Shown here: in pieces, positions 12,237 to 31,669 of the stretch
Numbering within the stretch: the first letter of the stretch is position 1
How the letters are laid out: every line of letters begins with the position of its first letter
Program-made: the position numbers and the translations under genes
The notes under the pieces: model-generated
Seen by the model: only the letters and a program-made list of their open reading frames with translations
What the model was told of the DNA's origin: nothing
Databases searched by the model: none
DNA from: an uncultured Eubacteriales bacterium
Lineage (GTDB): Bacteria > Bacillota > Clostridia > Oscillospirales > CAG-382
Reading direction: 5' to 3'
DNA length: 64,000 nucleotides
Assembly (NCBI GenBank): GCA_934444645.1
Contig: CAKSCV010000002.1
Span: forward strand, 70,464 to 134,463

Positions 12237-12275
12237 GCACCCGACGAATCGACCGGATTTGTCGGGTGCGTTTTT
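12237..12275. terminator. Second hairpin in the convergent gap (probable terminator of the minus-strand AraC gene; also has a T-run on +)
   Basis: GCACCCGAC (12237-12245) / GTCGGGTGC (12261-12269). It is followed by GTTTTTA on + and by ATTTTCTGC on the minus strand. Confidence 0.6.
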
Positions 12276-13077: not shown

Positions 13078-13153
13078 AAAATATCACCTGTATAAAGTAT
13101 AGCATAGCTTTTTCAAAAATGCAAGATTTACATAATAAAAAGCGCATCCTTTA

Positions 13154-13182
13154 TAACACTTTTTTTTCGAATGTGGTACAAT
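13154..13182 (+). promoter_or_regulatory. Candidate activator-dependent promoter of the 13.2-20.6 kb operon
   Basis: Extended -10 TGgTACAAT (13174-13182) with a poor -35 (TAACAC, 13154-13159) at 17-nt spacing. The weak -35 fits a promoter that needs the divergent AraC protein. Confidence 0.45.
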
Positions 13183-13205
13183 GACGGCAGAATGGAGGGA
13201 TATCT

Positions 13206-14525: not shown

Positions 14526-14530
14526 GAACC

Positions 14531-15268: not shown

Positions 15269-15269
15269 G

Positions 15270-17171
15270 ATGGACTATTTGACATACGATGTTGTGGTCA
15301 TCGGCAGTGGTGCCGCCGGGTTCAACGCTGCCAACCGTATCAGGCAAAACAGCGGCCTTTCCGTGGCACTTTTAACCGAAGACCGGAATTCCGGCACATC
15401 GCGCAACACCGGCAGCGACAAGCAAACCTATTATAAGCTCGGTATCAGCGGCGACTCGCCCGACAGCGTGAGCCTTATGGCTGAGGAGCTGTTTTCCTGC
15501 GGCAGTGTAGACGGCGACAACGCCCTTTGCGAGGCGGCACTTTCTTTACGCTGCTTTATGAATTTAGCCGAACTCGGCGTGCCGTTTCCGACCGACCGCT
15601 ATGGTCAGACCGTCGGCTATAAAACCGACCACGACTTGCATGAACGGGCAACCTCCGCAGGGCCATTGACCTCTCGGTTTATGACGGAGGCTTTGGAAAA
15701 AAAGGCGAAAGAGCTGAAGATCGATGTTTTAGACGGCTATCTTGCCACGCGGCTTTTAACCGATGAAAACGGCGTTCTCGGCGTGTGCGGTATTCTTGCC
15801 AAAACCGGCGAGCCGTTCGGCGTAAAGGCCGGAAACATCGTTCTTGCTACCGGCGGCCCTGCCGGAATTTATGCCGACAGCGTATATCCGAAAAGCCAAA
15901 CCGGCTGTCTTTCGCTTGCGCTCCTTGCCGGCGTGCAGCTGCAGAATCTCACCGAGTGGCAATACGGTCTTGCTTCGACCGAGCCGCGCTGGAACGTTTC
16001 GGGAACGTATATGCAGGTGCTGCCGCGGTTTGTTTCGGTGGAGGATGACGGCACAGAGCATGAATTTCTGTCTGACTATTTTCACGACCCGTATGAAGCA
16101 CTTTCCACCGTGTTTTTAAAAGGGTATCAATGGCCGTTTGACAGCAAAAAGGTGCTTGACGGTTCTTCGGTCATCGACCTTTTGGTATACACGGAAACAG
16201 CCGTTAAGAAACGCAAGGTTTATTTGGATTATACGAAAAATCCGTTCGGACTTGCAGCCATCGATTTTGAAAAGCTTTCGCCCGAAGCGTATACCTATCT
16301 GCAAAAAGCGGACGCTCTTTTCGGTACACCGATCGAGCGGCTTCTCAAAATGAACGCTCCGGCGGTCGAGCTGTATCGCAGCAAAGGCACGGATATTGCC
16401 AAAGACTATCTGCCGATTGCGCTTTGTGCCCAACATCACAACGGCGGCATCGCGGTGGATCTCTGGTGGCAGACCAATGTCAAAGGCTTGTTTGCGGTCG
16501 GCGAGTGTGCCGGAACACACGGGATCGTCCGTCCCGGAGGCTCGGCACTCAATGCCGGTCAGGTCGGTTCTCTGCGTGCGGCGGAATATATCTGCCGTTA
16601 TCCGAAAACCGCCGATAAAGATCACTTCGAAAAAGCATATGCAGACGAGAAAGCCGCCTTGCAAAAGACGCTGCAGGATGTGATAAAGAACGAAAATACC
16701 GCCGATAAGCATATCGCCGAAGCACGGCGCCGTATGAGCGATTCGGCAGCAGCCATCCGTGATCCGAAGGAATTGAAGGCAGTGCTTGCACAAACCGAAC
16801 ACGCACTTTCCGTTTGTTCGCAAGAATTCGGCATTACGGATAAAAGCGACTATGTCAAGTACCAAAAATATATCGATATTTTGCTTACCCAACGCGCTAT
16901 GATAAACGCCTTCCTAGACTATGCCGAAACGGTCGGCGATACACGCGGCTCGGCTTTGTATTACGCGCCGGACGGCGCACTCAGAGAAGGACTTTCCGAA
17001 ATGTTCCGTCTTAAAGCGGAGCATCAAGCGGCAAAGGACAAGATTCAAACCGTGATCTGGACGGACGGAAGAATCACCTGCACCTGGCGTCCTGTTCGTC
17101 CGATTCCGGACCTTGACGGCTTTTTTGAAAATGTTTGGCGTTCCTTCCGCGAAAACGGAAATGTCTATTAA
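15270..17171 (+). CDS. FAD-binding flavoprotein of the succinate dehydrogenase/fumarate reductase/L-aspartate oxidase superfamily
   Basis: 'YDVVVIGSGAAG' dinucleotide fold, 'AQHHNGGIAVD', and 'LFAVGECAGTHG..RPGGSALNAGQV'. ATG 15270 is 1 nt after the SDR stop codon. Confidence 0.8.
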   Translation: MDYLTYDVVVIGSGAAGFNAANRIRQNSGLSVALLTEDRNSGTSRNTGSDKQTYYKLGISGDSPDSVSLMAEELFSCGSVDGDNALCEAALSLRCFMNLAELGVPFPTDRYGQTVGYKTDHDLHERATSAGPLTSRFMTEALEKKAKELKIDVLDGYLATRLLTDENGVLGVCGILAKTGEPFGVKAGNIVLATGGPAGIYADSVYPKSQTGCLSLALLAGVQLQNLTEWQYGLASTEPRWNVSGTYMQVLPRFVSVEDDGTEHEFLSDYFHDPYEALSTVFLKGYQWPFDSKKVLDGSSVIDLLVYTETAVKKRKVYLDYTKNPFGLAAIDFEKLSPEAYTYLQKADALFGTPIERLLKMNAPAVELYRSKGTDIAKDYLPIALCAQHHNGGIAVDLWWQTNVKGLFAVGECAGTHGIVRPGGSALNAGQVGSLRAAEYICRYPKTADKDHFEKAYADEKAALQKTLQDVIKNENTADKHIAEARRRMSDSAAAIRDPKELKAVLAQTEHALSVCSQEFGITDKSDYVKYQKYIDILLTQRAMINAFLDYAETVGDTRGSALYYAPDGALREGLSEMFRLKAEHQAAKDKIQTVIWTDGRITCTWRPVRPIPDLDGFFENVWRSFRENGNVY

Positions 17172-17184
17172 AGGAGCGAAAGCC

Positions 17185-18843
17185 ATGAAAGAGATCTATA
17201 TTGATATCATGGAGCGGGCTTTTCACGCCTATGATAAAGAACGCATTATCACCTATATCGACGAAGTCGGGCAAGACGGACTCTATGAGCACGGCTTTCC
17301 GAGGCTTACGGCGGATTTGGCAATTTTGAACGCGTTTGGCCGTTGTACCGAATATCGTGAGCTTATGCTCGGAATGATGGGGATGTGCTGCGAAAAGATG
17401 CCGCATAACAAGGCGGCCAATGAATTTTCTGTGCGGGAGATTGTCTGCGCTATAAAGCTTTTGGAAAAAACAAAAACGGTTGAACCGTGGCGGATTCAGG
17501 GCTGGATCAACGCTTTGTCGACATTTGACCCGTATTCCGATTATAACGTGGTCACAAAGCCGTTTGAATCGCGCGGGAACTGGGCGGCATTCGGCGCAGT
17601 CAGTGAGATCGTGCGAAGCAAGCTGTGCGGCGTGGACAGCTCGGTTTTCATTGATAATCAGATATCGTCGCTGCTCGGCGATTTCGATGTAAACGGTATG
17701 TATAAAGACCCGCATAACCCGATGGTCTATGATTTCGTGACGCGTGTATTGTTAGAGTATATGCTCTTTGCCGGGTATAACGGCAAGTATCGGCGTATTC
17801 TCGAACAGCACGTGCAAGAGGCTTCTTATTATGCGGCGCACCTGCAATCGGTCACCGGCGAAATGCCGTTCGGCGGCAGAAGCAATCAGTTCTTGCATAA
17901 TCAGATGTGGCTTGCGGCGGATTATGAGTTTTTGGCAACATTTTTTGCCGCACGCGGCGATTTGCAAAAAGCCGGTGAATTCAAGGCCGCAGCACGCAAG
18001 GCGGCGGAAAACTTAACGCCGTGGCTGTCGATGTCCTCCTTGCGTTCCTTAAAGAACCGCTATCCGATCCGTACCATGATCGGCTGTGAGGGATACGGCT
18101 ATTTCAACAAATATATGATTACGCTTGCATCGATTGCTTTTATTGCATATCAGTTTGCTGATGACAGCATTCTGCCGACCGCAGCACCCTGTGAAAAGGG
18201 CGGCTATGTCTGCCGTACAAGCGATGCGTTCCATAAGGTTGTTTTGAACGGCTTCGGCTATTCGATGGAAATCGATACAAACGCCGATTTTGGTTATGAC
18301 GCCTGCGGACTCGGTAAATTGCAAAAGGCCGGTTATCCCGATACCCTTTGCCTTTCCGTGCCGTTTCCGCCGAAGGACGCAAACTATAACACGGAACAGG
18401 AAAACATCCGTGCCATGTCGCTTTGTCCGTATTTTGAGAAGGATGGAAAAACGCTGTACGGCTCGGAATATCCGCTTGCCTATGTCGGGGAGAGCGTAAC
18501 GGACGATGAAATAACCGTCCGATTTACCCAAGAACCGGACGGAAACCGGATTGAGCTTGCCTATTCGCTTTCGCCTTCCGGAGCAGCATTAAAGGCAACC
18601 GGCGACGTAACGGGATTCATGCTTCCGGTGTTTGAATGCGACGGCGGATGTGACATCGAAAGCTGCACGAAAATAACCGAAAAAGACGGGGAGCTTGCCG
18701 TCTCGTATCAAAACCATATCTGCCGTTTTCTTTTCGAGGCACCTCTTGACAAAGCGTTTGAAAGATACTATAATCGAAACGGACGGTATCGCGTTTATAA
18801 GGTTCCGGCTAAAGGGATCCGTATTACGTTTGAGGAGGAATAG
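17185..18843 (+). CDS. Hypothetical protein (552 aa), no recognisable motif; possibly an alpha/alpha-toroid plus beta-sandwich fold
   Basis: Long ORF within the operon. SD 'AAAGGAG' lies 8 nt upstream of ATG 17185. The N-terminal two-thirds look helix-rich and the C-terminal third strand-rich. Confidence 0.65.
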   Translation: MKEIYIDIMERAFHAYDKERIITYIDEVGQDGLYEHGFPRLTADLAILNAFGRCTEYRELMLGMMGMCCEKMPHNKAANEFSVREIVCAIKLLEKTKTVEPWRIQGWINALSTFDPYSDYNVVTKPFESRGNWAAFGAVSEIVRSKLCGVDSSVFIDNQISSLLGDFDVNGMYKDPHNPMVYDFVTRVLLEYMLFAGYNGKYRRILEQHVQEASYYAAHLQSVTGEMPFGGRSNQFLHNQMWLAADYEFLATFFAARGDLQKAGEFKAAARKAAENLTPWLSMSSLRSLKNRYPIRTMIGCEGYGYFNKYMITLASIAFIAYQFADDSILPTAAPCEKGGYVCRTSDAFHKVVLNGFGYSMEIDTNADFGYDACGLGKLQKAGYPDTLCLSVPFPPKDANYNTEQENIRAMSLCPYFEKDGKTLYGSEYPLAYVGESVTDDEITVRFTQEPDGNRIELAYSLSPSGAALKATGDVTGFMLPVFECDGGCDIESCTKITEKDGELAVSYQNHICRFLFEAPLDKAFERYYNRNGRYRVYKVPAKGIRITFEEE

Positions 18844-18846
18844 CCT

Positions 18847-19599
18847 ATGAATTCTTATCGTTTGGGACTTGTGTCGGTTTCTTTTCGTTCGCATACGCCG
18901 CAGGATATCTTAACGGCCATGAACCGTGCAGGATTAGACTGTATCGAATGGGGCGGCGACGTTCATGCGCCGGCCGAGGACATGGAAAAAGTCGGCCTTC
19001 TGGCTGTACTCCAAAAGGAATACGGTGTCATTTGCTCATCCTACGGCACCTATTTTCGCATCGGCGTGTCTCCGCTTGAGGAATTGCCTTCGGTTGTTGC
19101 TGCGGCCAAAACACTCGGAACGAATATCATTCGCCTGTGGGCAGGCAATGAGGGAAGCGCGGCTTATACCGGGCAAAAGAAAGAGGATTTTTTCTCCGAA
19201 TGCCGTAAGATCGTAAACATTGGTGTTGAAAACTATGTGATTTTCTGCTTGGAGTGCCACAATTGGACCTACACGGACACAAAGGAAACAGCCTTAGAAC
19301 TCATGGAAGCTGTTGATTCACCGAATTTCAGAATGTATTGGCAGCCGAATCAGTTTAAGAGCATTGAAGAAAACATTGCCTACGCCAAGCTGCTTGCGCC
19401 GTATACCGAGCACATTCACGTGTTCAACTGGAAAGGCGAACAAAAAATGCCGCTAGGCGAAGCTGTCGATGTGTGGAAACGCTATTTGACTGCATTTGAT
19501 ACGAACAAAACGCTGCTTTTGGAGTTTATGCCGGACGGCGACATTCACTCACTTGAGAGGGAAGCAGCGGTTTTGAGAAGAATTGTGGAGGGCGTGTAG
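18847..19599 (+). CDS. Sugar phosphate isomerase/epimerase (xylose-isomerase-like TIM barrel)
   Basis: About 250 aa starting 'LGLVSVSFR', with further blocks '..IEWGGD', '..IRLWAG', '..CLECH' and '..EHIHVFN'. These are the conserved metal-ligand and barrel pattern of the AP-endonuclease-2/xylose-isomerase-like family. Confidence 0.8.
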   Translation: MNSYRLGLVSVSFRSHTPQDILTAMNRAGLDCIEWGGDVHAPAEDMEKVGLLAVLQKEYGVICSSYGTYFRIGVSPLEELPSVVAAAKTLGTNIIRLWAGNEGSAAYTGQKKEDFFSECRKIVNIGVENYVIFCLECHNWTYTDTKETALELMEAVDSPNFRMYWQPNQFKSIEENIAYAKLLAPYTEHIHVFNWKGEQKMPLGEAVDVWKRYLTAFDTNKTLLLEFMPDGDIHSLEREAAVLRRIVEGV

Positions 19600-20616
19600 A
19601 TGTGCATGAAGAAAACCGCAAAAAGCATTTTGTTAAGCAATAGCTTTGAAAAATTAGCAAGCGTTTACAGTACGGAGGTGCTCGAAAAACTGAAGACCGT
19701 TGCCGGTCTTGACGCAGCTTTCCGCAACAAGACGATGATCCTTGCCGATAAAGCTGCTTTTGCCGATACCGAGTATATTTTTTCCACATGGGGAATGCCG
19801 GTGTTTGACGAAGCCGAAATTGCCGCGTGCTTTCCCAAACTGAAAGCGGTCTTTTATGCTGCCGGAAGTGTGCAGGAGTTTGCAAGACCCTTTCTGAATG
19901 CGCATATCAAAGTCTTTTCCGCCTGGGCGGCCAATGCCGTTCCGGTCGCCGAGTATACAGCCGCGCAGATCGTTTTGGGTATGAAAGGTTTTTTTGCGGC
20001 ATCTCGTTTGTTTAAGAAATCTTACCGCGACGCAAGAACACGTTTTGCCGAATATCCCGGCGTGTATGATGAAACCGTCGGTATCATCGGTGCCGGCATG
20101 ATCGGCAAAATGGTGATTGAAAAGCTGAAGGACCTGCATCTGAACGTCCTTGTTTTTGATCCGTTTTTGCCCGATGAAAAAGCGAAGGAGCTCGGCGTTG
20201 TCAAATGCGAACTTCCGGAGCTTTTCGAAAAATCCTTTGTGATATCCAACCATTTGGCCAATAACGCGCAAACCAAAGGAATGCTCGATTACAATCTGTT
20301 TGCAAGTATGCGCCGCAACGCCGTTTTTCTCAATACCGGACGCGGCGCTCAGGTTGTGGAAGACGATTTGGTGCGTGTACTCACCGAGCGGTCTGACCTT
20401 ACGGCTGTGTTGGATGTGACCTTTCCCGAGCCGCCGGTAAGCGGCCACCCTTTCTATACATTGGAAAACTGTGTATTAACGCCGCATATTGCCGGCAGCA
20501 GCGGCAACGAAGTTCATCGTATGGCGGAATACATGCTTGCAGAGTTTGAAAAAAACGAGCGTGAGCAGAGCAGTCCCTACGAAGTGACCTTGAAAATGTT
20601 AGAAACCATGTCTTAA
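19600..20616 (+). CDS. D-isomer-specific 2-hydroxyacid dehydrogenase family, NAD-binding
   Basis: 'VGIIGAGMIGK' Rossmann motif, catalytic Arg in 'LNTGRG', and His in 'TPHIAGSS'. The ATG directly follows the upstream stop codon. Confidence 0.85.
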   Translation: MCMKKTAKSILLSNSFEKLASVYSTEVLEKLKTVAGLDAAFRNKTMILADKAAFADTEYIFSTWGMPVFDEAEIAACFPKLKAVFYAAGSVQEFARPFLNAHIKVFSAWAANAVPVAEYTAAQIVLGMKGFFAASRLFKKSYRDARTRFAEYPGVYDETVGIIGAGMIGKMVIEKLKDLHLNVLVFDPFLPDEKAKELGVVKCELPELFEKSFVISNHLANNAQTKGMLDYNLFASMRRNAVFLNTGRGAQVVEDDLVRVLTERSDLTAVLDVTFPEPPVSGHPFYTLENCVLTPHIAGSSGNEVHRMAEYMLAEFEKNEREQSSPYEVTLKMLETMS

Positions 20617-21745: not shown

Positions 21746-24121
21746 ATGAAAACAGTGTCGGAAAAAAACACCAAAAATGCCGGACGCTTTAAGCGTTTGT
21801 TCGGCCTTGACCGGGATGAGCGTGAAGATGACCGTGTTGAAGTGACGGAAGATGTTTTCTCGGACGATTCGGAAGATATCCCGGAAGCCGTGAAAGCTGA
21901 ATCAAAAAAAGCGGCTGCTTCCGAAGATTCCGCCGCCGATATTGAAAAAGAAGCCCGTAACTTTTATAATAATCATCATGCCAAATCGGTGGAGGACAGA
22001 GTACGCAGCATTCATGAAAATGCTTTGCACAGCTATGCCAATGAATCGGAAGTTGAACCGCTTCCGACAGAAGGGGAGTCCGAAACCAAAACGGAAGAAA
22101 CCGATACTGCCGATACGGAATACGTGCAAGCAGATGAAACTGCGGAAATATCGGATGAAGAAAGTACCGATTCCGAGGATGTCTATGCAGAGAATGACGC
22201 GGACAGTGCCGCCGAAGACTTTGGCGAAACCAAAAACTATGATATGTCCCGGTTGATTTCGGTGTTGAAGGGTACCAAAAACAGCGGCTCGAAACGGAAA
22301 AAATACGACGACGAGGACGAGGCTGTCTACGATGATGAGGATGACCCGAATCAAACGGAGGATGCGCTGGATATTCATGATTCCGAATTGTACGATGACG
22401 TCAATGAGTACCGCCACGATTTTGAATATACCGAACGCGTACAGGGAGCTGCACTTTTTGCCGATTTTCGCAAAAGTGCCGTTATTGCCACAATTTCCGT
22501 TGTTTTGTCGCTTTTGGCAACCGTAGTTTGCGTGTGGTTTGAGCTCGGTCATGCCGCAGGACTTCCGTTTTCCGGCATGATGATGCCCGGTCGCTACGGC
22601 CGCGTCTATGCCATGATCTGCCTGCAGGTGCTTGCTGTTGCCGTCTTCTTTAACTTAGACGGACTTTCGCGCGGCTTTCACAAGCTTTCGCTCAAACGCC
22701 CGGCACCCGAAGCCGTTGCGGCGGTAAGCGTAACTGTGTGTGCGCTGCATACGATTTATACGGCTGTTGCCGCCTATGAAGCGTCTTCCTATAAAACGTA
22801 TTGCTTTGCAGGCTGCTTCATCCTGTTTGTCCTCTCGGTCAATACCTTTGTAAAGGCGTATACACGCTTCAAATCCTTTGCCATGGTGCTTTCGAAAAAG
22901 CCGAAACTGGCGACAAAGAATCTGGATCATCTGGCGGAAGAATTTTCTGCGTTTGATAAATATCTGAGCGAAGACAGCGAGGTTTTGGCTGTGACAAAAA
23001 CCGCATCGGTTTCCGATTTTGTCAAGCGCACCTACACAGTGCCTTCCGCGCTCCGCTCGTGCAATGCGTTTACATATACCATGCTCGTTGTCAGCGTTGT
23101 TTTGGCGCTTGTCGGTATGTTCTTCTTAAAAAAATCACCGTATGATGCCATCAGCGGCGGCTTGCTTGTTTATCTGTTTTCTGCTCCGGTCGGAATGCTT
23201 CTTGCGACGGCTCTCCCGTTTTTTGTTTCTTCCATGAAAGCGTCGGCTTTACACGCCGCAATCCTTGGTGAGGCTGCCGGCGACTTTTTGGATAATGCCG
23301 CTGTGCTTTCGTTTGATGATACGGAGGTGTTTCCGCCGAAAACCGTAAAAATCACCAATATCAAAACCTATAACGAACACCGTATCGATAAAATTGTCGT
23401 TTATATGACGGCTATTTTCAATAAGATTGGCGGACCGCTTTCCTATGTGTTTGCAAGCTCCTTACAGGAGATTCCGGCCGATGTCGGCGAGATCATGGTG
23501 CATGAAACAAGCTCCGACGGGCTTCATTTAAAGGTCGGCGAGGACGATGTTTTGGTCGGAACAAGCGCGTATTTGCGGATGTTTGACATTGAAACGCCGG
23601 TGGATGCGGTTGATGAAACCGAAATGCGTTCTCTTACAAGCATTTTATTCCTTGTGTGCAACAATGAAATCGCCGCAAAGTTTTATATCCGCTATTCCTT
23701 CAACCGCCGGTTTGAACCGGTTTTGCGCGGCATTTACGATGCCGGCATCTGCTGTGGTATCCGTACCTTTGATCCGGGCGTGGATGATCAGTTGGTTGCC
23801 GGAAACCTCAAAGAAACCAATTATCCGATCCATGTGATCCGCAAGGATATCAAGGAAATCGACCATGTCGAGGAATCGCTTTCGAGCAGCGTCATTTCAC
23901 TTTCGTCGATACATAATTATCTGAAAGCATTTTTGCTTGTCGATCGGCTGAACGGTCTTTATCGCACGGCCAAGATCCTTTCGTTTATCGGCGCACTTGT
24001 CGGATTGGCTCTTTCGGCTTTCTTCTTTGTCACCGGCGGCACGCTTGCTGCATCATCGTTGTTGCTGTTCCAGATCTTCTGGCTGCTTCCGCCGGCACTT
24101 TTCTCGTTCCTCGGAAAATAA
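21746..24121 (+). CDS. Membrane protein resembling a P1B-type ATPase scaffold with degenerate catalytic motifs, fused to a poly-acidic N-terminal region
   Basis: After about 230 D/E/S/T-rich residues come TM helices and blocks that align by eye with heavy-metal P-type ATPases ('FVKAYTRFKSFAMVLSKKPKLAT'). The motifs are degenerate: 'SAPVGMLLATALP' stands where CPC would be, 'SFDDTEVF' where DKTGT would be, and 'RTFDPG' where TGDN would be. An alternative GTG start is at 21758. Confidence 0.6.
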   Translation: MKTVSEKNTKNAGRFKRLFGLDRDEREDDRVEVTEDVFSDDSEDIPEAVKAESKKAAASEDSAADIEKEARNFYNNHHAKSVEDRVRSIHENALHSYANESEVEPLPTEGESETKTEETDTADTEYVQADETAEISDEESTDSEDVYAENDADSAAEDFGETKNYDMSRLISVLKGTKNSGSKRKKYDDEDEAVYDDEDDPNQTEDALDIHDSELYDDVNEYRHDFEYTERVQGAALFADFRKSAVIATISVVLSLLATVVCVWFELGHAAGLPFSGMMMPGRYGRVYAMICLQVLAVAVFFNLDGLSRGFHKLSLKRPAPEAVAAVSVTVCALHTIYTAVAAYEASSYKTYCFAGCFILFVLSVNTFVKAYTRFKSFAMVLSKKPKLATKNLDHLAEEFSAFDKYLSEDSEVLAVTKTASVSDFVKRTYTVPSALRSCNAFTYTMLVVSVVLALVGMFFLKKSPYDAISGGLLVYLFSAPVGMLLATALPFFVSSMKASALHAAILGEAAGDFLDNAAVLSFDDTEVFPPKTVKITNIKTYNEHRIDKIVVYMTAIFNKIGGPLSYVFASSLQEIPADVGEIMVHETSSDGLHLKVGEDDVLVGTSAYLRMFDIETPVDAVDETEMRSLTSILFLVCNNEIAAKFYIRYSFNRRFEPVLRGIYDAGICCGIRTFDPGVDDQLVAGNLKETNYPIHVIRKDIKEIDHVEESLSSSVISLSSIHNYLKAFLLVDRLNGLYRTAKILSFIGALVGLALSAFFFVTGGTLAASSLLLFQIFWLLPPALFSFLGK

Positions 24122-24146: not shown

Positions 24147-25751
24147 ATGAAGCTCTTCAAAAAAATCCTATTCGCGGCATTGTTGGTCGGAACTTTCTCC
24201 ATGGCGGCATTTTCTGCCGACGCCGAGATTCCCGATGAACACTTAAAGGATATTAAATCCTCCGATGAACAAAGCATCAGCATCCTTTGCGTCGGCAACT
24301 CCATCCTTAACCACGGCGCAAGCGAATCGATCGGTTGGTTCGGAAACTGGGGTATGGCTGCTTCCGCACAGGAAAAGGACTACTTCCATCTGCTCCAACA
24401 GAAGGTAGCCGATGCCGGTTACGGCAATGTCGTTTGGAGCTCAGTCGGCGTAGCACCGCTTGAACGTGAAATCGATACGCGTACCGATTACGATTACAAA
24501 AAAGAGATCGATTCCATGCTCGCTCCGTCGGTCACCAAAGCCGTGCCCGACGTGGTCATTTTCCAAATCGGTGAAAATGTCAACAAAGGCCCGACACGTG
24601 AGTCGTATGAAATTGCACTCACTAAATTTGCCGAATATTGCCAAACGGTCAATCCCGATGTCGAAATTATTTTCTGCAAACCGTTCTGGGACGGCAAAGC
24701 ATTATGCATGGGCGCACAGAATGCCGCTATTAACCTCGGCTTTACCTATGCGGATCTCGCACAGTTCAACACGAATGAAAACAAAGCGGTTGGCTTGTTT
24801 GAGCACGGCGGCGTTGCCAATCATCCGGGCGACAAGGGCATGGCCAACATTGCCGATGAAATTTTCAAACAGCTCGACATTATCCTCTATAAAAAATGCA
24901 AGGATCCTGCACAGGTAGAGGTCAAGCTCGACGGCAAGTACATCACATTTGACGTGCTGCCGCGTTTGGTGAACGACCGTACCATGATTCCGGTTCGTGC
25001 GGTTGCCGAAGCGTTCGGCGCCGATGTGGATTGGGATGAAGAAACGGAAACCGTGATTATTGAAAACGGTTCTGTCAAGATTTTCATGAAGCTCGGCGAA
25101 AACTTCTTTACCAAAAACGGCGAAAAAATCGAGCTCGATGCTCCTGCATTCGAAACCGACGGCCGCACGCTTGTACCGGCAAGAGCCATTGCCGAGTCGC
25201 TTGACTGCAAGGTCGATTGGGACGATAAAACCCAAACCGCTTTGGTATTCTCTCCGGCGGAAGAAACTGCAAAGCTTCCGACTGCCGTTGAGGCCGACCC
25301 GTGCGAAAATCTCAAGAAGTACGGCTTCTACGCCGGCGGAAACTCCAAGGTCTCAGTCGTTGATGATAACGACGAGCATGGCAAGGTATATAAGGTCGAA
25401 GCCACTACTGCCGGAAAATCGTGGACGTATATCTGGGTGAAAATGGATTTGGAACCCGGTAAGACCTATATTGTCGAAGCGGATTTGAAAGCAGCCGATA
25501 CCAACGGTGCCGGTGAAACGGTGGATAAAGGCAATATCGGCTTTTGCCTGCATTTCGACGGCAAAGATCACGGTATCGGCATGACCCAGGCCACGACCGA
25601 TGAATGGACGCATGCTGCAGTGGAATATTCGGTTCCGGAGGGCTTTACAAAGAATCTGGACAACGATTCCTTCGGCATCTTTACTGACCCGTTAAACAAT
25701 ATTGCTGGAAGCTTCTATGTCGACAATATCACCGTAAAAGTAAAAGAATAA
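24147..25751 (+). CDS. Secreted multidomain protein: SGNH-like esterase domain + two copper-amine-oxidase-N-terminal-like (stalk) repeats + C-terminal CBM-like beta-sandwich
   Basis: Signal peptide 'MKLFKKILFAALLVGTFSMAAFSA'. A 'CVGNSILNHG' block and a later 'ANHPGD' block are SGNH-like. There are two stalk repeats ('DGKYITFDV..RTMIPVRAVAEAFGADVDWD' and 'RTLVPARAIAESLDCKVDWD'). SD 'AAGGAG' lies upstream of ATG 24147. Confidence 0.75.
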   Translation: MKLFKKILFAALLVGTFSMAAFSADAEIPDEHLKDIKSSDEQSISILCVGNSILNHGASESIGWFGNWGMAASAQEKDYFHLLQQKVADAGYGNVVWSSVGVAPLEREIDTRTDYDYKKEIDSMLAPSVTKAVPDVVIFQIGENVNKGPTRESYEIALTKFAEYCQTVNPDVEIIFCKPFWDGKALCMGAQNAAINLGFTYADLAQFNTNENKAVGLFEHGGVANHPGDKGMANIADEIFKQLDIILYKKCKDPAQVEVKLDGKYITFDVLPRLVNDRTMIPVRAVAEAFGADVDWDEETETVIIENGSVKIFMKLGENFFTKNGEKIELDAPAFETDGRTLVPARAIAESLDCKVDWDDKTQTALVFSPAEETAKLPTAVEADPCENLKKYGFYAGGNSKVSVVDDNDEHGKVYKVEATTAGKSWTYIWVKMDLEPGKTYIVEADLKAADTNGAGETVDKGNIGFCLHFDGKDHGIGMTQATTDEWTHAAVEYSVPEGFTKNLDNDSFGIFTDPLNNIAGSFYVDNITVKVKE

Positions 25752-25880: not shown

Positions 25881-25927
25881 ATTCAATAAGAAAGGGATGT
25901 TTCCCGAATAAATAAAGGAGAATGATT

Positions 25928-27037
25928 ATGAAAAAAATCACTCGTATCGTCCTTGCGGCACTTCTTGTTGCCTGCACGGTATTCACCTTTGCAGCTTTTG
26001 CCGAAGATGAAGGTCGCGTCATTACGGTAACGCTCGACGGCAATCCCATTGCTTTTGACGTTCCGCCGCAGCTTATCGAAGGCAGAACCATGGTTCCGCT
26101 TCGCATGATTTTCGAAGCCCTCGGTGCAGAAGTTTCTTGGGATGATGCAACCCAGACCGCCAGCGGCGTAAAGGGCGACACCACTGTCAAGATCACCATC
26201 AACGAAAAGGTTCTCTATAAGAACGGCCAGGCAATCACGCTCGATGTTCCGGCGCAGCTGGTCAATGACCGCACGCTCGTTCCGGCTCGTGCCATTTCCG
26301 AAAGCTTTGAAGTTAAGGTTGACTGGGATGACGCTACCTCTACGGTTATCCTCGAAAGCCCGAAGGCTGTTGAAAAGAAGCACGTTGAACTGAAAAAAGA
26401 CGCTTTTGTTGCCGGTAACGGTTACCACATTATCAGCAATGACGGCGATAAGATTTCGGAAAATTCTCCGGTTACCGTGGCAGATGTTGAAGGCGGCGTA
26501 CAGGTTTCGCACGGCGGCTACTATCAGGACGGCAAGAACTGGGGCGGCGTTGCACTCAAAGACGCTTATAAGCTTGATGGTCTTTCGGTTACCGTTAAAT
26601 ACGATCAGGTTCCGGAGGTTACCTCTGCGACGGACTGCTGGATCTGCATTGATTTCTTAAATAAGCCGCAGCTGTTCCAGGTCGGTGATGTTGCCGGCAA
26701 CCCGGGCTTTATGAATCTTTTCCGCTTTGGCAAACCGGCTCTTGAACTCTATAACGGTATAACGACATTCCAAGGCATCTCCGGTCTTGAATATGACAGC
26801 TCTATTTTTGCCATCAAGAGCGGCGACGTCGTAACTGTTTCCGCAAAGCTTGACGGCGATTACTACGCTTTCACAATTACAAAAGGCGACAAGTCGTATA
26901 CCTATACGTATGAAAGCTCCGATTTTACCAAGGTGTTTACCGACGGTAAGGCACATGTAGCACTTTCCGCTTCCTGCAAGGGTTCGCAGAAAGACGCATT
27001 CAAATATACCATTACCGATATTTCGTATGTCGACTAA
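25928..27037 (+). CDS. Secreted protein: two copper-amine-oxidase-N-terminal-like (stalk) repeats + C-terminal domain of unknown function
   Basis: Signal peptide 'MKKITRIVLAALLVACTVFTFAAFA'. Repeats 'DGNPIAFDVPPQLIEGRTMVPLRMIFEALGAEVSWD' and 'RTLVPARAISESFEVKVDWD'. SD 'AAGGAG' lies 7 nt upstream of ATG 25928. Confidence 0.75.
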   Translation: MKKITRIVLAALLVACTVFTFAAFAEDEGRVITVTLDGNPIAFDVPPQLIEGRTMVPLRMIFEALGAEVSWDDATQTASGVKGDTTVKITINEKVLYKNGQAITLDVPAQLVNDRTLVPARAISESFEVKVDWDDATSTVILESPKAVEKKHVELKKDAFVAGNGYHIISNDGDKISENSPVTVADVEGGVQVSHGGYYQDGKNWGGVALKDAYKLDGLSVTVKYDQVPEVTSATDCWICIDFLNKPQLFQVGDVAGNPGFMNLFRFGKPALELYNGITTFQGISGLEYDSSIFAIKSGDVVTVSAKLDGDYYAFTITKGDKSYTYTYESSDFTKVFTDGKAHVALSASCKGSQKDAFKYTITDISYVD

Positions 27038-27049
27038 TTAAGTATAAGA

Positions 27050-27092
27050 AAAAATCCGTGTTTCGGTTTTCCGAAGCACGGATTTTTTGTTG
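27050..27092. terminator. Bidirectional intrinsic terminator in the convergent gap
   Basis: ATCCGTGTTTCGG (27054-27066) / CCGAAGCACGGAT (27071-27083), with one G-U pair. It is flanked by an A-run on the left and a T-run on the right, so it can terminate on both strands. Confidence 0.85.
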
Positions 27093-27093
27093 T

Positions 27094-27948
27094 TCAAAGA
27101 AGCGGATTCTTGAATAAACGCTTCCGCTTATCCATATACGCTTTGTCCGGTACAGTAAAATTGTGTCCGTCAGCGGATAGTCCAAGTCCGGCATACTTGC
27201 TCTCGCCTAAACGATGATAGGCAAGAAGCTCGACGGGAACCTCCGGATATCCGGCAAGGAACTCTGCGATTTTCCGCATTTCCTCCATGTCTCCGTTTCG
27301 CTCCGGAATGACCGGTACGCGTACCAAAACTTTGACTCCTAACGCATAAAGCCGCTTGAAATTGGAAAGGAGCTGTGCATTGTCCGCACCCGTCCAAGCC
27401 AAATGCTTTTCCGGTGAAACAGCTTTAATATCATACAAAAACAGATCGGTAAACGGCAATACCCTCTCAAACAGCACAAACGGTACGTTCCCGGCGGTAT
27501 CAACGCAGGTGTGAAGTCCCCTCTCTTTACAGGCTTTGAGCAGTGTTTCCAAAAAATCGATTTGCAGCATACATTCACCGCCGGAAAAGGTAACACCGCC
27601 ATCCAAACCGTAAAAATCGCGATCGCGAAGTACTTCTGATAGTATGTCACGAACCGATCGCCGTTTGCCGCAGACAGACACTGCGCCGGTTGGGCAGACA
27701 TCGCCGCACCTGCCGCACAGCAGGCATTTTTCCGGTGATGGACACACGCTTTTGCACGTGCCGCAGCCGATGCATTTATCTGCATAAAACAGCTTGCATG
27801 GCGCGTGGTTTTGACTTTCGGGATTGTGACACCAATCACACCGCAGGTTGCAGCCTTTGAAAAAGACGGTTGTGCGAAGTCCCGGTCCATCTACAAAAGA
27901 GGAATGTGCGATGTCAAACACCATGCCGGTTGTATCAAATGCGCCCAT
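27094..27948 (-). CDS. Glycyl-radical enzyme activating protein (radical SAM, with two extra ferredoxin-type 4Fe-4S motifs)
   Basis: 'CNLRCDWCHNPE' (CX3CX2C), 'CIGCGTCKSVCP' and 'CLLCGRCGDVCP'. ATG 27948 sits behind 'GAGAGG', 4 nt after the GRE stop codon. The longer track ORF (to 28002) overlaps the GRE gene. Confidence 0.92.
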   Translation of the reverse strand: MGAFDTTGMVFDIAHSSFVDGPGLRTTVFFKGCNLRCDWCHNPESQNHAPCKLFYADKCIGCGTCKSVCPSPEKCLLCGRCGDVCPTGAVSVCGKRRSVRDILSEVLRDRDFYGLDGGVTFSGGECMLQIDFLETLLKACKERGLHTCVDTAGNVPFVLFERVLPFTDLFLYDIKAVSPEKHLAWTGADNAQLLSNFKRLYALGVKVLVRVPVIPERNGDMEEMRKIAEFLAGYPEVPVELLAYHRLGESKYAGLGLSADGHNFTVPDKAYMDKRKRLFKNPLL

Positions 27949-27952
27949 CTTT

Positions 27953-30079
27953 CTACCTCTCAAGCGTGCGGTGCAGGATTTCATCCTGAATTCCGGCTTC
28001 AAGCTTTACAAATGTACCGGAATAGCCACTGACGCGCACACGAAGCGATTGATAGTTTTCGGGATGCTCCAAAGCATCTTTCAACTCGCCGGCACTCAAA
28101 TAGTTTAATTGAACGTGCATACCGCCTTGTTTGAAGTAGGTTTCAATCGTTTTGCACAGCTTAGCAAAATAAGCATCGTTTTTTACCAAGGCTTCATCGA
28201 CCATAAGATTGCACACGAACGGACCGCACAAAATTCCTTTCGGGTCCATTTTTGCAACCGAGGCGAGAAGCGCGGCAATGCCTTCGCGGTCTTTGCCGCG
28301 TCCCTGACCGGAGCCGACAACAAAGGTTTCGCCGTCATACCGGCCGTCCGGCGTGGCGCGCGTGGTTTTTCCGAAAAAGGCAAAATGCGGATGATAGCCG
28401 GCAAGCGTGCCAAATAGGATATGCGCACCGTTATCGAGTCGTTTGTGCGTGGTGAGCTCCCATAAGGTCGTGGTAAACCGTGCAGCCATTTCATCGGATA
28501 AAGGATAGCTGTTGCCGAAAAACTTGCCGGTTTTCATGATTTTGGTGTGTAAGACCGGGTTGTTCTGCCAGTTCTGCTTCAAGGTGTCGATCAAGCATTC
28601 CATGGAAATTTGTTTTTCATCGTAAACAAATTGCTTGATTATGGATAACGAGTCAATAACGGTTGTTAGTCCCATTAAATTTGCGCCGCCGATTTTGATC
28701 TTTGTGCCGCATTGTGTTGGACTCACACCGCTTTCAATGCAACCATTGAACAAAAAAGCGCTTAATACGTTGATATCCTTGGCACGCATCTCGTTAAAAG
28801 CATTGTCATAACGTATAATTTCATCCAATTCGCTTTTCAAAACCGCACGGTAGAGCGAAAAGAATTCTTCAAAGGATTCACAGCCGACAGCTTCCGCTTC
28901 GTGTTCGTACAGCGTTTTTTCAATTGATCGGGCAATGTTTGCGGTCGTTCCGCCGTACCACACACTGCCTTGGAAGGCCGGTTCGTTGCAGCCGACCATG
29001 GTGTAGCGCACGGCTTGGCTGCGGTTAATACCAAGGTTTTCTTCAAAGGACGGTATGTGCGGCTCATCGCTCACAAAGGCAATGCGCTTATATTTATCAT
29101 CACGTTCGCATTTCAATAAATGCTCAAGCACCTCAAACGGTGTCTTTTTTGTCCAGCGCAGGGAAATCTGCGGACGAAGCGTATCGAGATCCATGAGTGC
29201 TTCCACAATGAGGTCAGACAGCTCGTTATAACCGTCCTCGCCGTCCTCTGTATAGCCGCCGATAGCAAAGTGACATTCCGCACCGCGGTCGTTGTTTACA
29301 CAGTTATACGGCGTGAAAGCACAAATGTAAGTAAAAACTTCCTGTATCAGATCTTTTGCCTGTTCGCGTGTCAATGTTCCATTTTCGATATCCTGCTTGT
29401 AAAGCGGATAAAGAAAGCGGTCGATCGTGCCGATGCTGTCAGGCAGATAAGAGAAACAGAAGATAATATCAATCAAACCTTCATAGAAGTTTCGCGCCGG
29501 TTTTGCCGGAACATTTTCCAAAGCGTCGGCAAGGGCATTTAGTTCGTCTTTACGGGTTTTATCAGCCGTTTCTTTTGCAGCGGCACGATAGGCTTCGGCG
29601 TGCCTTGCGGCGCGTTCGGTCACGCCCTTACAGATAATTTCAACACCGCTCAGAAAGTCGAGCTTATCTTTTTCGTATTTGTGCGTTTCCTTGGAAAAGG
29701 CAATATCCCAAAGCAGCTTTTCGACACCGAAACGGATAATTTTTTCATAATCGGGTGTGGAGTGCTGCCACTCGAAAACAACCAAGTTATCACGGTGTTT
29801 GCAATAAAACTCTTGAAGAGCAGCACCGCAGGCGGAATGCCCGACACGGCTAAACAGATCACCCGGAACGCCGGCATTGTAGTAATGCAAAACGCCCGGA
29901 AAGCGGTTGGAATCGGTGAGATACGGTTTCTGTGCAAGAATATATTCGGTGATGCGCTTGGCGTTGAACACGGCTGTCGGGAGAGCAAGATCCATCGGAT
30001 CGTATTCTGCGGCGGTTTGTTCGCCGAAAATGTCGGTGTGCTTAATAAGAGCTGTCAGTTTTTGGATTCGTTCTGTCAT
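27953..30079 (-). CDS. Glycyl-radical enzyme (pyruvate formate-lyase superfamily, single-Cys/PFL2-like), substrate unknown
   Basis: C-terminal glycyl-radical fingerprint 'LRVRVSGYSG' (Gly codon 28025-28027). Active-site loop 'MVGCNEPAF' (Cys codon 28988-28990, with Glu two residues later). 708 aa. Confidence 0.92.
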   Translation of the reverse strand: MTERIQKLTALIKHTDIFGEQTAAEYDPMDLALPTAVFNAKRITEYILAQKPYLTDSNRFPGVLHYYNAGVPGDLFSRVGHSACGAALQEFYCKHRDNLVVFEWQHSTPDYEKIIRFGVEKLLWDIAFSKETHKYEKDKLDFLSGVEIICKGVTERAARHAEAYRAAAKETADKTRKDELNALADALENVPAKPARNFYEGLIDIIFCFSYLPDSIGTIDRFLYPLYKQDIENGTLTREQAKDLIQEVFTYICAFTPYNCVNNDRGAECHFAIGGYTEDGEDGYNELSDLIVEALMDLDTLRPQISLRWTKKTPFEVLEHLLKCERDDKYKRIAFVSDEPHIPSFEENLGINRSQAVRYTMVGCNEPAFQGSVWYGGTTANIARSIEKTLYEHEAEAVGCESFEEFFSLYRAVLKSELDEIIRYDNAFNEMRAKDINVLSAFLFNGCIESGVSPTQCGTKIKIGGANLMGLTTVIDSLSIIKQFVYDEKQISMECLIDTLKQNWQNNPVLHTKIMKTGKFFGNSYPLSDEMAARFTTTLWELTTHKRLDNGAHILFGTLAGYHPHFAFFGKTTRATPDGRYDGETFVVGSGQGRGKDREGIAALLASVAKMDPKGILCGPFVCNLMVDEALVKNDAYFAKLCKTIETYFKQGGMHVQLNYLSAGELKDALEHPENYQSLRVRVSGYSGTFVKLEAGIQDEILHRTLER

Positions 30080-30201
30080 AAGATCAATCTCCTTTCGCCG
30101 ACTTTTCCTATCGGCAAGAAAAGAATACCAAATACGAAGCGAAAAGTAAATGCCGAAATGCGTATATTTATACTTTTTGACACAAATAAGCGGAAAGATA
30201 C

Positions 30202-30230
30202 TTGACTTTTCGGATTCTTGTCTGTATACT
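30202..30230 (+). promoter_or_regulatory. Sigma-A-type promoter of the AraC-family gene
   Basis: TTGACT (30202-30207), a 17-nt spacer, then TATACT (30225-30230). Confidence 0.6.
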
Positions 30231-30247
30231 GATAACGGTGATAGAAT

Positions 30248-31036
30248 ATGGAATGGAGCAAAATTTGCGTGACCGATATTACACGCGTTATCTATGTTTC
30301 AGCCGAAGAGTATAAAGAAAAAAGCACACGGTTTCAAGCACCGCTGCGATCAAATGAATTGATTTACGTTTTATCCGGAGAAAACCTTGTCAATTTCAAC
30401 GGAACGCATATGCATTGCAGAGGAGGAGATGTTCGCTTCTTGCCGAAAGGAAAGACGGATATCTATACGGTTGAGCGAATTGTTCACGGTGATTGTATCG
30501 ATGTTTTTTTTGACACAGCCGAACCGGTAGCGGAAAAAGCATTTTTGCTTCATACAACCAATCTGAGTCTTGAAACGGTCTTTCGACGCATTTTCTTAAC
30601 ATGGCAAAAAAAGGATACCGGCTTCTTGCCGCGCTGTATGAGCGATCTGTATACGATTTTTGCTGAACTGGAAAAAGTAAATTACTTGCCGGAGGAAAAC
30701 TACGAAAAGATACGCCCGGCGATCGATTTCATTAACCGGAGCTTTACAAAACCAAAGAATGAGCTGAATATGGTGATGTTAGCCGACCTGTGCGGCATCA
30801 GCTCATCGTATCTCAAGCAGCTGTTTATCCGCAAGTTTTCATTGTCGCCCAAGCAGTATATTCTGAAACGAAAGACGGATTATGCGTGTGAGCTTCTTCT
30901 GTCGGGCTATTACAGCGTCGCTTCCGTGGCCGCCGCGCTTGGATACGAGAACGTATACTATTTCAGCCGCGCGTTCAAAAAAATGACCGGTGCTTCGCCG
31001 ACAGAATATCAAAAGAAATATATTTCAAGCAAATAG
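30248..31036 (+). CDS. AraC/XylS-family transcriptional regulator, divergent from the GRE operon
   Basis: N-terminal cupin-like domain and C-terminal HTH signature 'LADLCGISSSYLKQLFIRKF...GYENVYYFSRAFKKMTGASPTEY'. Confidence 0.9.
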   Translation: MEWSKICVTDITRVIYVSAEEYKEKSTRFQAPLRSNELIYVLSGENLVNFNGTHMHCRGGDVRFLPKGKTDIYTVERIVHGDCIDVFFDTAEPVAEKAFLLHTTNLSLETVFRRIFLTWQKKDTGFLPRCMSDLYTIFAELEKVNYLPEENYEKIRPAIDFINRSFTKPKNELNMVMLADLCGISSSYLKQLFIRKFSLSPKQYILKRKTDYACELLLSGYYSVASVAAALGYENVYYFSRAFKKMTGASPTEYQKKYISSK

Positions 31037-31119: not shown

Positions 31120-31125
31120 TATCAC

Positions 31126-31168
31126 AGTGAGTTCGTAACCATCCTCACTTAAAACAAAACTAAGGAGA
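31126..31168 (+). promoter_or_regulatory. preQ1-I riboswitch (translational, SD-sequestering type)
   Basis: AGUGAG-UUCGUAACCAUC-CUCAC-UUAAAACAAAACUAAGGAG. This is a 5-bp P1 (GUGAG/CUCAC) followed by an A-rich tail ending in the SD. It closely resembles the known B. subtilis (AGAGGUUCUAGCUACACCCUCUAUAAAAAACUAAGG) and T. tengcongensis (CUGGGUCGCAGUAACCCCAGUUAACAAAACAAGG) aptamers, and it sits directly upstream of a queT gene. Confidence 0.75.
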
Positions 31169-31177
31169 CAATCGAAT

Positions 31178-31669
31178 ATGGTACAGAAAAAAACAAAAAC
31201 TTTGGTAACCGGTGCAATCATTGCGGCACTGTATGTCGTGCTTACGTTTCTTGCAAACGCTTTCGGCCTTGCAAGCGGCGTGATTCAGGTGCGTATTTCG
31301 GAGGCACTCAATGTACTTGTATGCTTTACCGGTGCGGCGGTTCCGGGCGTAACGGTCGGCTGCCTGCTTGCCAACCTCTTGACCGGCGGCATCGTTATGG
31401 ATGTCATTTTTGGAACGCTTGCCTCGTTCATCGGCGCGTTCGGCGGCTATCTGCTTCGCAAAAATCGCTTGTTGGCACTGTTGTGTCCGATACTTTCCAA
31501 CACGCTCATCGTGCCGTTTGTGTTGAAATTCGCGTATGGAGCACCTGATGCCATTTGGTTCTTATTCGGATCAGTTGCTGTCGGTGAAGTGATTTCCTGC
31601 GGCATACTCGGTTTTTTGCTCGGCCATGTACTCGATCGATACGGTAAAAATCGCTTATTTCATAAATAG
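31178..31669 (+). CDS. queT: Queuosine-precursor transporter QueT
   Basis: A 163-aa, 5-TM protein with the typical QueT N-terminus 'TKTLVTGAIIAALYVVLTF...IQVRISEAL'. It is preceded by a preQ1 riboswitch. Confidence 0.85.
   Translation: MVQKKTKTLVTGAIIAALYVVLTFLANAFGLASGVIQVRISEALNVLVCFTGAAVPGVTVGCLLANLLTGGIVMDVIFGTLASFIGAFGGYLLRKNRLLALLCPILSNTLIVPFVLKFAYGAPDAIWFLFGSVAVGEVISCGILGFLLGHVLDRYGKNRLFHK

Follow-up and report, generated by a model that had tools for sequence, protein, structure and literature searches.

Glycyl radical enzymes (GREs) carry out consequential reactions of gut anaerobes, among them those behind trimethylamine, H2S precursors, p-cresol, skatole and the degradation of hydroxyproline, and each newly assigned GRE clade has so far led to a new nutrient or toxin pathway. 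According to a superfamily review from June 2026, the characterised enzymes related to pyruvate formate-lyase (PFL) comprise PFL/KFL, four decarboxylases, the X-succinate synthases, glycerol dehydratase (GD), 1,2-propanediol dehydratase (PD), HpfG, HypD, HpyG, HpzG, CutC, IslA, IseG, HpsG, HplG, YbiW and PflD, and entire clades are still without assignment or validation (PMC13450708). The characterised eliminases and isomerases all have a Cys-X-Glu (CXE) loop with the Glu bonded to the substrate hydroxyl, His164 of GD is proposed to protonate the leaving hydroxyl, and the N-terminal helices of GREs form a conserved dimer interface (PMC13450708). Here, we describe a GRE gene that lies, together with an activase gene and a divergent AraC-type regulator gene, in a 64,000-nt stretch of DNA from an uncultured Eubacteriales bacterium (contig CAKSCV010000002.1, positions 70,464 to 134,463; hereafter called the window). 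The 708-aa enzyme is outside every characterised GRE family, and none of the enzymes listed in the 2026 review has its length or loop type (PMC13450708). As a member of an uncharacterised family it probably catalyses an anaerobic reaction that has yet to be described, with a small hydroxylated nutrient as its substrate.

The window GRE and the characterised GRE families

The GRE open reading frame (ORF) starts with ATG, 9 nt downstream of a GGAG ribosome-binding site, and matched the Pfam models PFL-like (1e-76; residues 106-551, corresponding to profile positions 159-631 of 647) and Gly_radical (4.8e-21; residues 594-691). An AlphaFold2 model calculated from 54 homologues reached a pLDDT of 93.8 and a pTM of 0.92, and Foldseek matched it to some 50 GRE chains of known structure (TM ~0.8, probability 1.00). 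The 54 family sequences were invariant at G685 within RVRVSG (V681-R-V-S-G685), at G363-C364-N365-E366, at Q105-H106, D214 and H270-F271, and at G557, G561-Y562 and H565.

An initial annotation of the window, made from the letters alone, had placed the ORF, the radical Gly and the catalytic Cys (C364, codon 28988-28990) and Glu (E366, codon 28982-28984), and all these coordinates were reproduced on recomputation. That annotation depended on the two loops occupying true catalytic positions, and they aligned exactly with those of GD: C364 and E366 with C433 and E435, and G685 with G763. The Gly loop also aligned with the Gly loops of HpsG and CutC. The single-Cys GCNE loop differs from the Cys-Cys pair of PFL, and the TIGR01255 score was 67 bits versus 994. 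The locus almost certainly encodes a functional GRE system that belongs to a family of its own. Gene decay or an artefact was ruled out by the intact ORF, a 99% identical copy in an independent metagenome-assembled genome (MAG) and the invariance of the catalytic residues.

Family assignment was based on NCBIfam cut-offs, on sequence and profile searches of the PDB and on identity in Foldseek alignments. All NCBIfam equivalog models were missed by a factor of 4-7, including those of HpsG (250 bits, cut-off 1000), HypD (NF043068; 230 bits, cut-off 1100), CutC (TIGR04394; 190.7 bits, cut-off 1050), PflD (NF007437; 170 bits, cut-off 1109) and the arylacetate decarboxylases HPAD and IAD (163 bits versus 1150 and 191 bits versus 1100). 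The score on the PFL2/glycerol dehydratase subfamily model TIGR01774 (252.7 bits) was likewise below the cut-off of 678.2. At 708 aa, the window GRE does not reach the length of arylacetate decarboxylases (~870-900 aa), and no ORF for an HPAD small subunit was present at the locus. HpsG was the top single-sequence match in the PDB (6lon, 1e-57) and CutC the top profile match (9f3w, 1.8e-109); since solved GREs score about equally, the identity of the top match carries no weight. In the sequence search PFL2-class structures all fell within a narrow band of 1e-57 to 1e-38, and in Foldseek alignments identity to every solved GRE was 19-23%, with no family favoured. A full-text literature search found no paper on the short GCNE family. 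Altogether, the absence of a high-identity match to a characterised family, together with differences at several substrate-contact positions, supports the earlier proposal that this might be a new GRE specificity.

Pocket residues and predicted reaction class

The window GRE was compared with solved enzymes by sequence alignment. The family-invariant H106 aligned with His164 of GD, His166 of PD and the corresponding His of YbiW and PflD. At the same position C-S lyases have Gln (Gln187 of HpsG, which binds the sulfonate) and HpyG has Glu. Arg672 of HpsG is replaced by Gly557, and the alignment does not extend to the counterpart of R183; the Arg-Gln-Arg sulfonate anchor was thus not found in the alignment with HpsG. 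His281 and Ser282 of GD correspond to Asp214 and Ser215. Judged from the aligned residues, the machinery appears to be complete, with a Cys for hydrogen abstraction by the thiyl radical, a Glu for deprotonation of the hydroxyl and a His for protonation of the leaving group, and the rest of the pocket is unlike that of any known enzyme. Retention of His106 and absence of the sulfonate anchor favour C-O cleavage, either dehydration or ring-opening isomerisation, but do not prove it. Beta-elimination or isomerisation of the CXE type, in which an oxygen function leaves a small hydroxylated substrate, is a little more probable than all other outcomes taken together. A small hydroxylated compound, neutral or sugar-like, is the probable substrate.

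Conserved regulator, candidate operator and promoter

Thirteen genomes were compared, namely the window and 12 further distinct genomes with family members on their contigs. A divergent AraC gene adjoined the GRE gene in 12 of them, the exception being the Lentisphaeria locus, and in 10 of the 13 the activase gene was in the GRE operon. The GRE-adjacent AraC proteins were orthologous over their full length including the sensor domain (29-50% identity); other AraC genes at the same loci matched over the helix-turn-helix (HTH) region only. In the window protein the sensor domain gave no match to the AraC_binding model of Pfam and a weak cupin match. The regulator gene has a promoter-like site of its own at 30202-30230.

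Beyond this pairing, the survey of neighbourhoods brought up a conserved candidate operator and a conserved promoter. A 20-nt box (TTTGTGTCAAAAAGTAYAAA) lies ~61 nt upstream of the promoter, and in all AraC-bearing loci the box TtTGTGTCAaAAAgTacAAA was found upstream of the GRE gene on the GRE strand. The box of the window was the sole match there at <=3 mismatches, where 0.02 were expected by chance. When a position weight matrix (PWM) was applied to ~300 kb of flanking DNA, scores above 22 bits occurred only upstream of the GRE gene or of a co-regulated operon, including an instance outside the training set (L015-17), and the PWM box was absent in the AraC-less Lentisphaeria loci L007/L008.

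In an ungapped alignment of the 13 upstream regions, the conserved positions were tgTgCATTta (+31..+41) and TAt.AT (+60..+65), counted from the start of the box. Across loci, the element tgTGCATTta keeps a fixed spacing from the box and contains a -35-like TTTAC/TTGAC, which is followed after 17-18 nt by TAtaAT. The window promoter consists of a -35-like TTTACT (30145-30150), a 17-nt spacer and a -10-like TATTCT (30122-30127). In the I1/I2 layout of AraC, a strong upstream site is combined with a weaker site abutting the -35 element. Since the box near -61 and the second element abutting the -35 resemble this layout, activation by ligand-bound AraC would be the natural reading.

One relative carries two boxes, one before an operon of an M20 dipeptidase and a PGA_cap protein (L004:5231-5250) and one before GRE-activase-SDR (L004:7910-7929), where SDR stands for short-chain dehydrogenase/reductase. 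The additional box before the divergent M20-PGA_cap operon places these genes in the same predicted regulon, which implies a small regulon in that organism.

Accessory genes in relatives

In most genomes examined the cassette was as bare as in the window. An orthologous SDR (62-82% identity) was present at five loci of four relatives (L004, L005/L006, L020 and L021), and in L020 its gene overlaps the GRE stop codon; its best matches were glucose 1-dehydrogenases, below cut-offs. Three relatives have a protein of the phosphotriesterase (PTE) family that is closest to SsoPox-type enzymes, whose natural activity is lactone hydrolysis. Two relatives carry a Sapep/PepV-like M20 dipeptidase with the PGA_cap protein, the latter a weak match to the peptide epimerase MslH, and one has a beta-lactamase-fold hydrolase. 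The SDR-lactonase pair suggests a route through an oxidised sugar or lactone, and the peptidase-type genes suggest an amide-linked precursor. As these clues cannot be reconciled, we treat the accessory genes as leads only. A link of the M20 or PGA_cap proteins to metallo-bile-salt hydrolases was also considered and dropped; a bile-salt hydrolase preprint mentions GRE papers only in passing.

When the M20, PGA_cap, SDR, PTE and beta-lactamase-fold proteins were compared with the window by tblastn, the sole match was an unrelated SDR of 28% identity at 14552-15247. No transporter, microcompartment or aldehyde dehydrogenase gene was found at any locus of the 13 genomes, which would fit a permeant or internally made substrate and a product that is non-toxic (ketone-type) or directly metabolisable. 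The initial annotation had held that the substrate cannot be read from context; this is right for the bare cassette of the window, but the operons of relatives, with SDR, PTE, M20 and PGA_cap genes, do give clues.

Family size, distribution and short polypeptide length

Among 5.8 billion proteins searched, 661 matched the window GRE, and the best of these comprised at least 120 homologue clusters with 45-58% identity over the full length, almost all of 706-718 aa. They originate from MAGs of Clostridia/Oscillospiraceae and from Lentisphaeria and carry no source names beyond 'hypothetical protein', 'formate C-acetyltransferase' or 'pyruvate formate lyase family protein'. Several clusters at 90% identity contain 190-350 sequences each. 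In a single-protein search of genome contigs the matches listed were from the same species only (UMGS882, HGM12628), and a search of viral contigs found no relatives. The window organism corresponds to UMGS882 (99% identity), an uncultured Clostridiales of the human gut. The description of the enzyme as an orphan therefore applies to its function and not to its sequence, for which a conserved family exists with metagenomic members in the hundreds.

In a library clustered at 50% identity, full-length family members scored above 515 bits (38-54% identity, N-terminus included), followed by a shell of other 700-730-aa GREs at ~290-370 bits and the bulk of GREs at ~220 bits. Among the 120 full-length representatives within the top 149, 31 were not longer than 735 aa. 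The GCNE loop was present in all ten nearest short representatives and in one of 89 longer ones. Thus, the window GRE is shorter than solved GREs (759-897 aa or more), as had been noted, yet short clades surround it, so that its length is unusual only in comparison with characterised enzymes: it is a trait of the family and of neighbouring uncharacterised clades of 700-735 aa, and points to a larger region of the superfamily that is still unexplored.

The shell representatives P0132-P0151 (700-730 aa), likewise uncharacterised, have the GCNE loop, the pre-strand His and the Asp of 'PDSxG' in common with the window GRE and differ from it in their N-termini and in the motifs of the pocket strands, with AGNH for EWQH and GxENM for GYHPH. 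These features suggest that short GREs form a wider superclade in which several specificities occur. A further cassette was seen at L014:9338-13554, where a second AraC gene, an unrelated GRE gene and an activase gene directly follow the short-family AraC-GRE-activase cassette. The second GRE is 746 aa long as called, shares 24% identity with the window GRE and has the Cys loop RGCYETG and the Gly loop IRVCGWN. Its CYE/RVCGWN signature recurs in P0213 and P0261 and marks another uncharacterised GRE clade.

The missing residues were mapped by alignment with YbiW (810 aa) and PflD (765 aa) of E. coli and are mostly N-terminal (Table 1). In addition, a 2-residue insertion (G561-Y562) is located in a strand which, in other GREs, forms part of the pocket lining. 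HMMER/Pfam alignment of the window GRE was possible only from about residue 100 onwards, and the first 100 residues gave no match outside the family in the 50%-identity library. Since the N-terminal helices form the dimer interface in GREs, a changed oligomeric state is possible, and the trimmed N-terminal region may alter the canonical dimer interface.

Activase, terminator and surrounding genes

The activase gene starts with ATG at 27948, 4 nt past the GRE stop codon; a longer TTG ORF from 28002 is probably spurious. The protein contains CNLRCDWC (CX3CX2C) at residue 33 and ferredoxin-type CX2CX2CX3C motifs at residues 59 and 75. It passed TIGR02494 with 294.5 bits (cut-off 174) and remained below every equivalog cut-off, reaching for instance 287 bits versus 425 on the HypD activase model. 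Position, radical SAM (S-adenosylmethionine) motif and the two ferredoxin-type motifs are thus as initially described. The terminator hairpin has a folding energy of -29.7 kcal/mol (z = -9.3) on the + strand and of -21.4 kcal/mol (z = -6.9) on the - strand, with U-runs on both.

Past the AraC gene follow unrelated housekeeping genes, namely a preQ1 riboswitch with QueT, then FtsH and glutamate synthase. The preQ1 aptamer (31121-31169, + strand) precedes the QueT transporter gene (31178-31669) and, with 33.7 bits and E = 5e-4, is below the Rfam gathering score of 39; given its position it is probably genuine. No gene for a shell protein, a transporter or an aldehyde/alcohol dehydrogenase flanks the GRE module. 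ORF, Pfam and folding analyses hence bore out the view of a self-contained module, delimited by the bidirectional terminator on one side and the queT riboswitch unit beyond the AraC gene on the other.

Table 1 Features of the GRE locus in window coordinates, and deletions of the window GRE relative to YbiW and PflD
Feature	Position	Strand	Basis
GRE, 708 aa, short 'GCNE' clade	27953..30079	-	Intact ORF, Pfam, AlphaFold2/Foldseek, 54-sequence alignment
G685 codon, predicted glycyl-radical site in 'LRVRVSGYSG'	28025..28027	-	Recomputed; family-invariant
Cys loop C364-N365-E366 in 'MVGCNEPAF', predicted thiyl-radical Cys and general-base Glu	28982..28990	-	Alignment
H106 codon, candidate general acid for the leaving group	29762..29764	-	Aligned to GD His164, PD His166
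Radical SAM GRE activase, 284 aa	27094..27948	-	TIGR02494, Cys motifs
Bidirectional intrinsic terminator, shared with convergent gene 25922..27037	27044..27094	both	Fold energy, U-runs
AraC-family regulator, 262 aa, with cupin-like sensor domain and C-terminal double HTH	30248..31036	+ (divergent)	HTH_18 3.7e-21, HTH_AraC 3.6e-18, weak Cupin_3
Candidate AraC site of high affinity (20-nt box TTTGTGTCAAAAAGTATAAA, centre near -61)	30167..30186	-	Conservation, PWM
Predicted GRE promoter, 'GCATTTAC' element	30122..30153	-	Conservation across 13 upstream regions
Deletion, ~21 aa	N-terminal region, past first helices		
Deletion, ~15 aa	N-terminal region		
Deletion, 8 aa	Directly before conserved His of beta-strand 1		
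Deletion, 7 aa	Before D214-S215		
Deletion, 5 aa	Before H270		
Several 3-aa deletions	Scattered		

Elsewhere in the window, a second AraC gene (12274-13077, - strand) is divergent from a gene run, both within 12274-20616. The run encodes an FMN oxidoreductase resembling old yellow enzyme, an SDR, a FAD_binding_2 protein, a 576-aa ORF product without Pfam match, a xylose-isomerase-like TIM barrel and a D-2-hydroxyacid dehydrogenase, and this region looks like a separate inducible catabolic cluster. Stalk-like Cu_amine_oxidN1 domains occur in three proteins (24147-25751, 25922-27037 and 44021-48688), of which one carries CBM_4_9 and another, 1555 aa long, is SLH-anchored; these proteins are probably at the cell surface. 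The 791-aa product of ORF 21746-24121 (+ strand), whose long N-terminal half is acidic and of low complexity and whose C-terminal half is hydrophobic, gave no Pfam match at E <= 1e-5.

Discussion

We read the locus as an AraC-induced two-gene operon for a 1,2-eliminase or isomerase that probably cleaves a C-O bond, and give this reading a probability of roughly 0.6. In this model AraC would bind the box (at about -61) together with a weaker site that overlaps with the -35 element, and in the presence of a small-molecule ligand would turn on transcription of the GRE and activase genes. By homology, the radical SAM activase with its two auxiliary Fe-S clusters would abstract a hydrogen atom from G685 to produce the glycyl radical, which in each turnover would be passed to C364. 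The C364 thiyl radical would take a hydrogen atom from the carbinol carbon of the substrate and E366 would deprotonate the hydroxyl at that carbon, whereupon the ketyl radical could expel the vicinal leaving group, most likely an oxygen function protonated by H106 in the manner of His164 in GD. After the product radical has regained hydrogen from C364, the net reaction would be a dehydration (1,2-elimination) or a ring-opening isomerisation that yields a carbonyl compound. In some relatives the product or a precursor might be handled by the co-operonic glucose-1-dehydrogenase-like SDR and the PTE-type lactonase. Of this model, the genes, catalytic motifs, fold, family conservation, orthology of the regulators and the conserved box and promoter are observed, and AraC binding, inducibility, the kind of leaving group and the substrate are predicted.

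Several observations weigh against this model. The pocket residues were assigned by sequence alignment alone, and the alignment is uncertain around Y339 and Y640 of GD. Asp447 of GD is replaced by Gly376, with a 2-residue deletion at this place; together with the uncertain positions this indicates a pocket that differs substantially from that of diol dehydratases. The CXE motif is also found in GRE isomerases, and for that reason the loop alone neither proves an eliminase nor fixes the type of reaction. The eliminase/dehydratase-type arrangement proposed initially thus stands as regards loop and alignment, but not as a proof of eliminase function. The SDR, PTE, M20 and PGA_cap genes occur in a minority of genomes and were not found in the 64-kb window, and they point in different directions, to sugar or lactone on the one hand and to peptide on the other. 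The box is partly palindromic (TTTGT-N10-ACAAA) and has a Rex/CRP-type resemblance, so that another regulator could bind it. Finally, all family members stem from MAGs or metagenomes, and none is linked to an experiment or a substrate.

Among other kinds of chemistry, a C-N or C-S lyase, either CutC-like on an amino alcohol or IslA/IseG/HpsG-like on a hydroxysulfonate, could be envisaged, since HpsG and CutC were the best PDB matches, the CXE loop is common to these enzymes and no dedicated transporter would be needed for the uptake of small amines. The top PDB match, however, carries no weight where all solved GREs are nearly equal, the HpsG residues Q187 and R672 of the sulfonate anchor are His106 and Gly557 here, the CutC and HpsG cut-offs were missed, and none of the 13 genomes offered a sulfite reductase, microcompartment or aldehyde dehydrogenase context; we consider such a lyase improbable. 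A decarboxylation, a C-C cleavage or an unprecedented reaction, with a misleading eliminase-like loop, is also unlikely, though it would agree with a score below even the PFL2 subfamily cut-off, with first 100 residues that match only the family and with family-only invariants on predicted pocket strands (W104-Q105, D214, H270-F271, N365 and G561-Y562-x-x-H565 with the 2-residue insertion); whole clades without validation are known (PMC13450708). Against it, no solved relatives were more distant than the much longer decarboxylases and X-succinate synthases (1e-28 to 1e-38, compared with 1e-55), neither a small-subunit gene nor the Cys-Cys pair of PFL is present at the locus, and the eliminase Glu and His are invariant. 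We regard it as very unlikely that the enzyme is a trimmed orthologue of a known glycerol or 1,2-propanediol dehydratase with no new specificity: identity is 22-23%, D447 and H281 of GD are replaced by Gly and Asp, indels lie beside the pocket strands, the TIGR01774 score is 253 versus 678, no microcompartment or 1,3-propanediol dehydrogenase was found at any locus, and a dedicated, co-evolving AraC suggests a ligand of its own. All this outweighs that GD and PD are among the best matches, that H106 and S215 are the equivalents of His164 and Ser282, and that a self-contained dehydratase with an unlinked reductase would resemble the route from glycerol to 1,3-propanediol.

The regulatory part of the model has a competitor of its own, in which a global dimeric regulator of the Rex or CRP/FNR type binds the 20-nt box and AraC acts elsewhere or only at the -35-proximal element. 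The box holds the inverted repeat TTTGT(G)-N-(C)ACAAA, which is perfect in L004 (TTTGTGTCAAAAAACACAAA), it resembles the Rex consensus TTGTGAA-N4-TTCACAA, and its centre near -61.5 is the classical class I position of CRP. High-scoring boxes were nevertheless confined to the neighbourhood of the AraC-GRE pair in ~300 kb and missing exactly where AraC is missing (L007/L008), and the orientation of the box relative to the GRE gene was constant; for a global regulator, further sites would be expected. The box also fits AraC monomers, each of which contacts two successive major grooves within ~17-20 bp. Binding by a global regulator therefore seems to be an unlikely explanation.

The family could represent a new class of compact radical dehydratases or isomerases for a type of substrate not yet linked to GRE chemistry, each with a dedicated AraC sensor whose ligand would point to the substrate, although we put this forward only tentatively and consider it rather doubtful. 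Examples within such a class may be a sugar acid, a lactone or an anhydro-sugar in an oxidative SDR-lactonase route, or a ketone-forming diol dehydration without a microcompartment. The short GCNE clade is common in gut and rumen-type metagenomes, where its annotation does not go beyond 'hypothetical' or 'PFL family'. It has about the smallest GRE architecture seen so far, ~50 aa below the shortest characterised PFL-like enzyme, and may help to tell which N-terminal elements can be dispensed with. With its conserved sensor, operator and promoter, the three-gene cassette should offer an experimental handle on the substrate that does not require the oxygen-sensitive enzyme to be reconstituted.

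Like GD of C. butyricum (PDB 1R8W/1R9D) and PD of R. inulinivorans (5I2A/5I2G), the window GRE has a 10-stranded barrel (TM 0.81-0.82), the Gly loop, the CXE Cys loop, equivalents of His164/His166 and of Ser282 and a dedicated activase with auxiliary clusters. It differs from them by its low identity (22-23%), by being ~80-135 aa shorter, by an invariant family Asn where the X of CXE is Val, by the 2-residue insertion G561-Y562 in the strand that holds Y640 of GD, and by an AraC-type regulator at a locus without microcompartment or diol-pathway context. With the isomerases YbiW and PflD, which act on 1,5-anhydroglucitol/mannitol-6-phosphate (PDB 8ID7/8ID0/8YJO), it shares the CXE motif, the His before beta-strand 1 and a simple operon without microcompartment, and no characterised enzyme of the PFL2 class is shorter than PflD (765 aa). 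Identity to these two is 22-25%, no phosphotransferase system or aldolase context exists at the window locus, and relative to PflD the window GRE lacks ~44 residues of the N-terminal region and loops of 7 and 5 residues.

The C-S lyases HpsG, IslA and IseG (PDB 6LON, 7KQ3, 5YMR) share the fold and the CXE loop; in place of their sulfonate-anchoring Gln and Arg the window GRE has His106 and Gly557, and the window locus has no sulfite-reduction context. The best Foldseek E-value (4e-38, TM 0.81) was obtained with the functionally unassigned PFL2 of Archaeoglobus fulgidus (PDB 2F3O), an archaeal protein of 776 aa with 21% identity and without an AraC cassette. On the regulatory side, the system differs from the araBAD-type I1-I2 arrangement in its sensor domain, which gave a weak cupin match and none to the AraC_binding model. 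In common with that arrangement, it has a divergent regulator gene and an upstream site followed ~21 bp downstream by a weaker conserved element that abuts the -35 hexamer.

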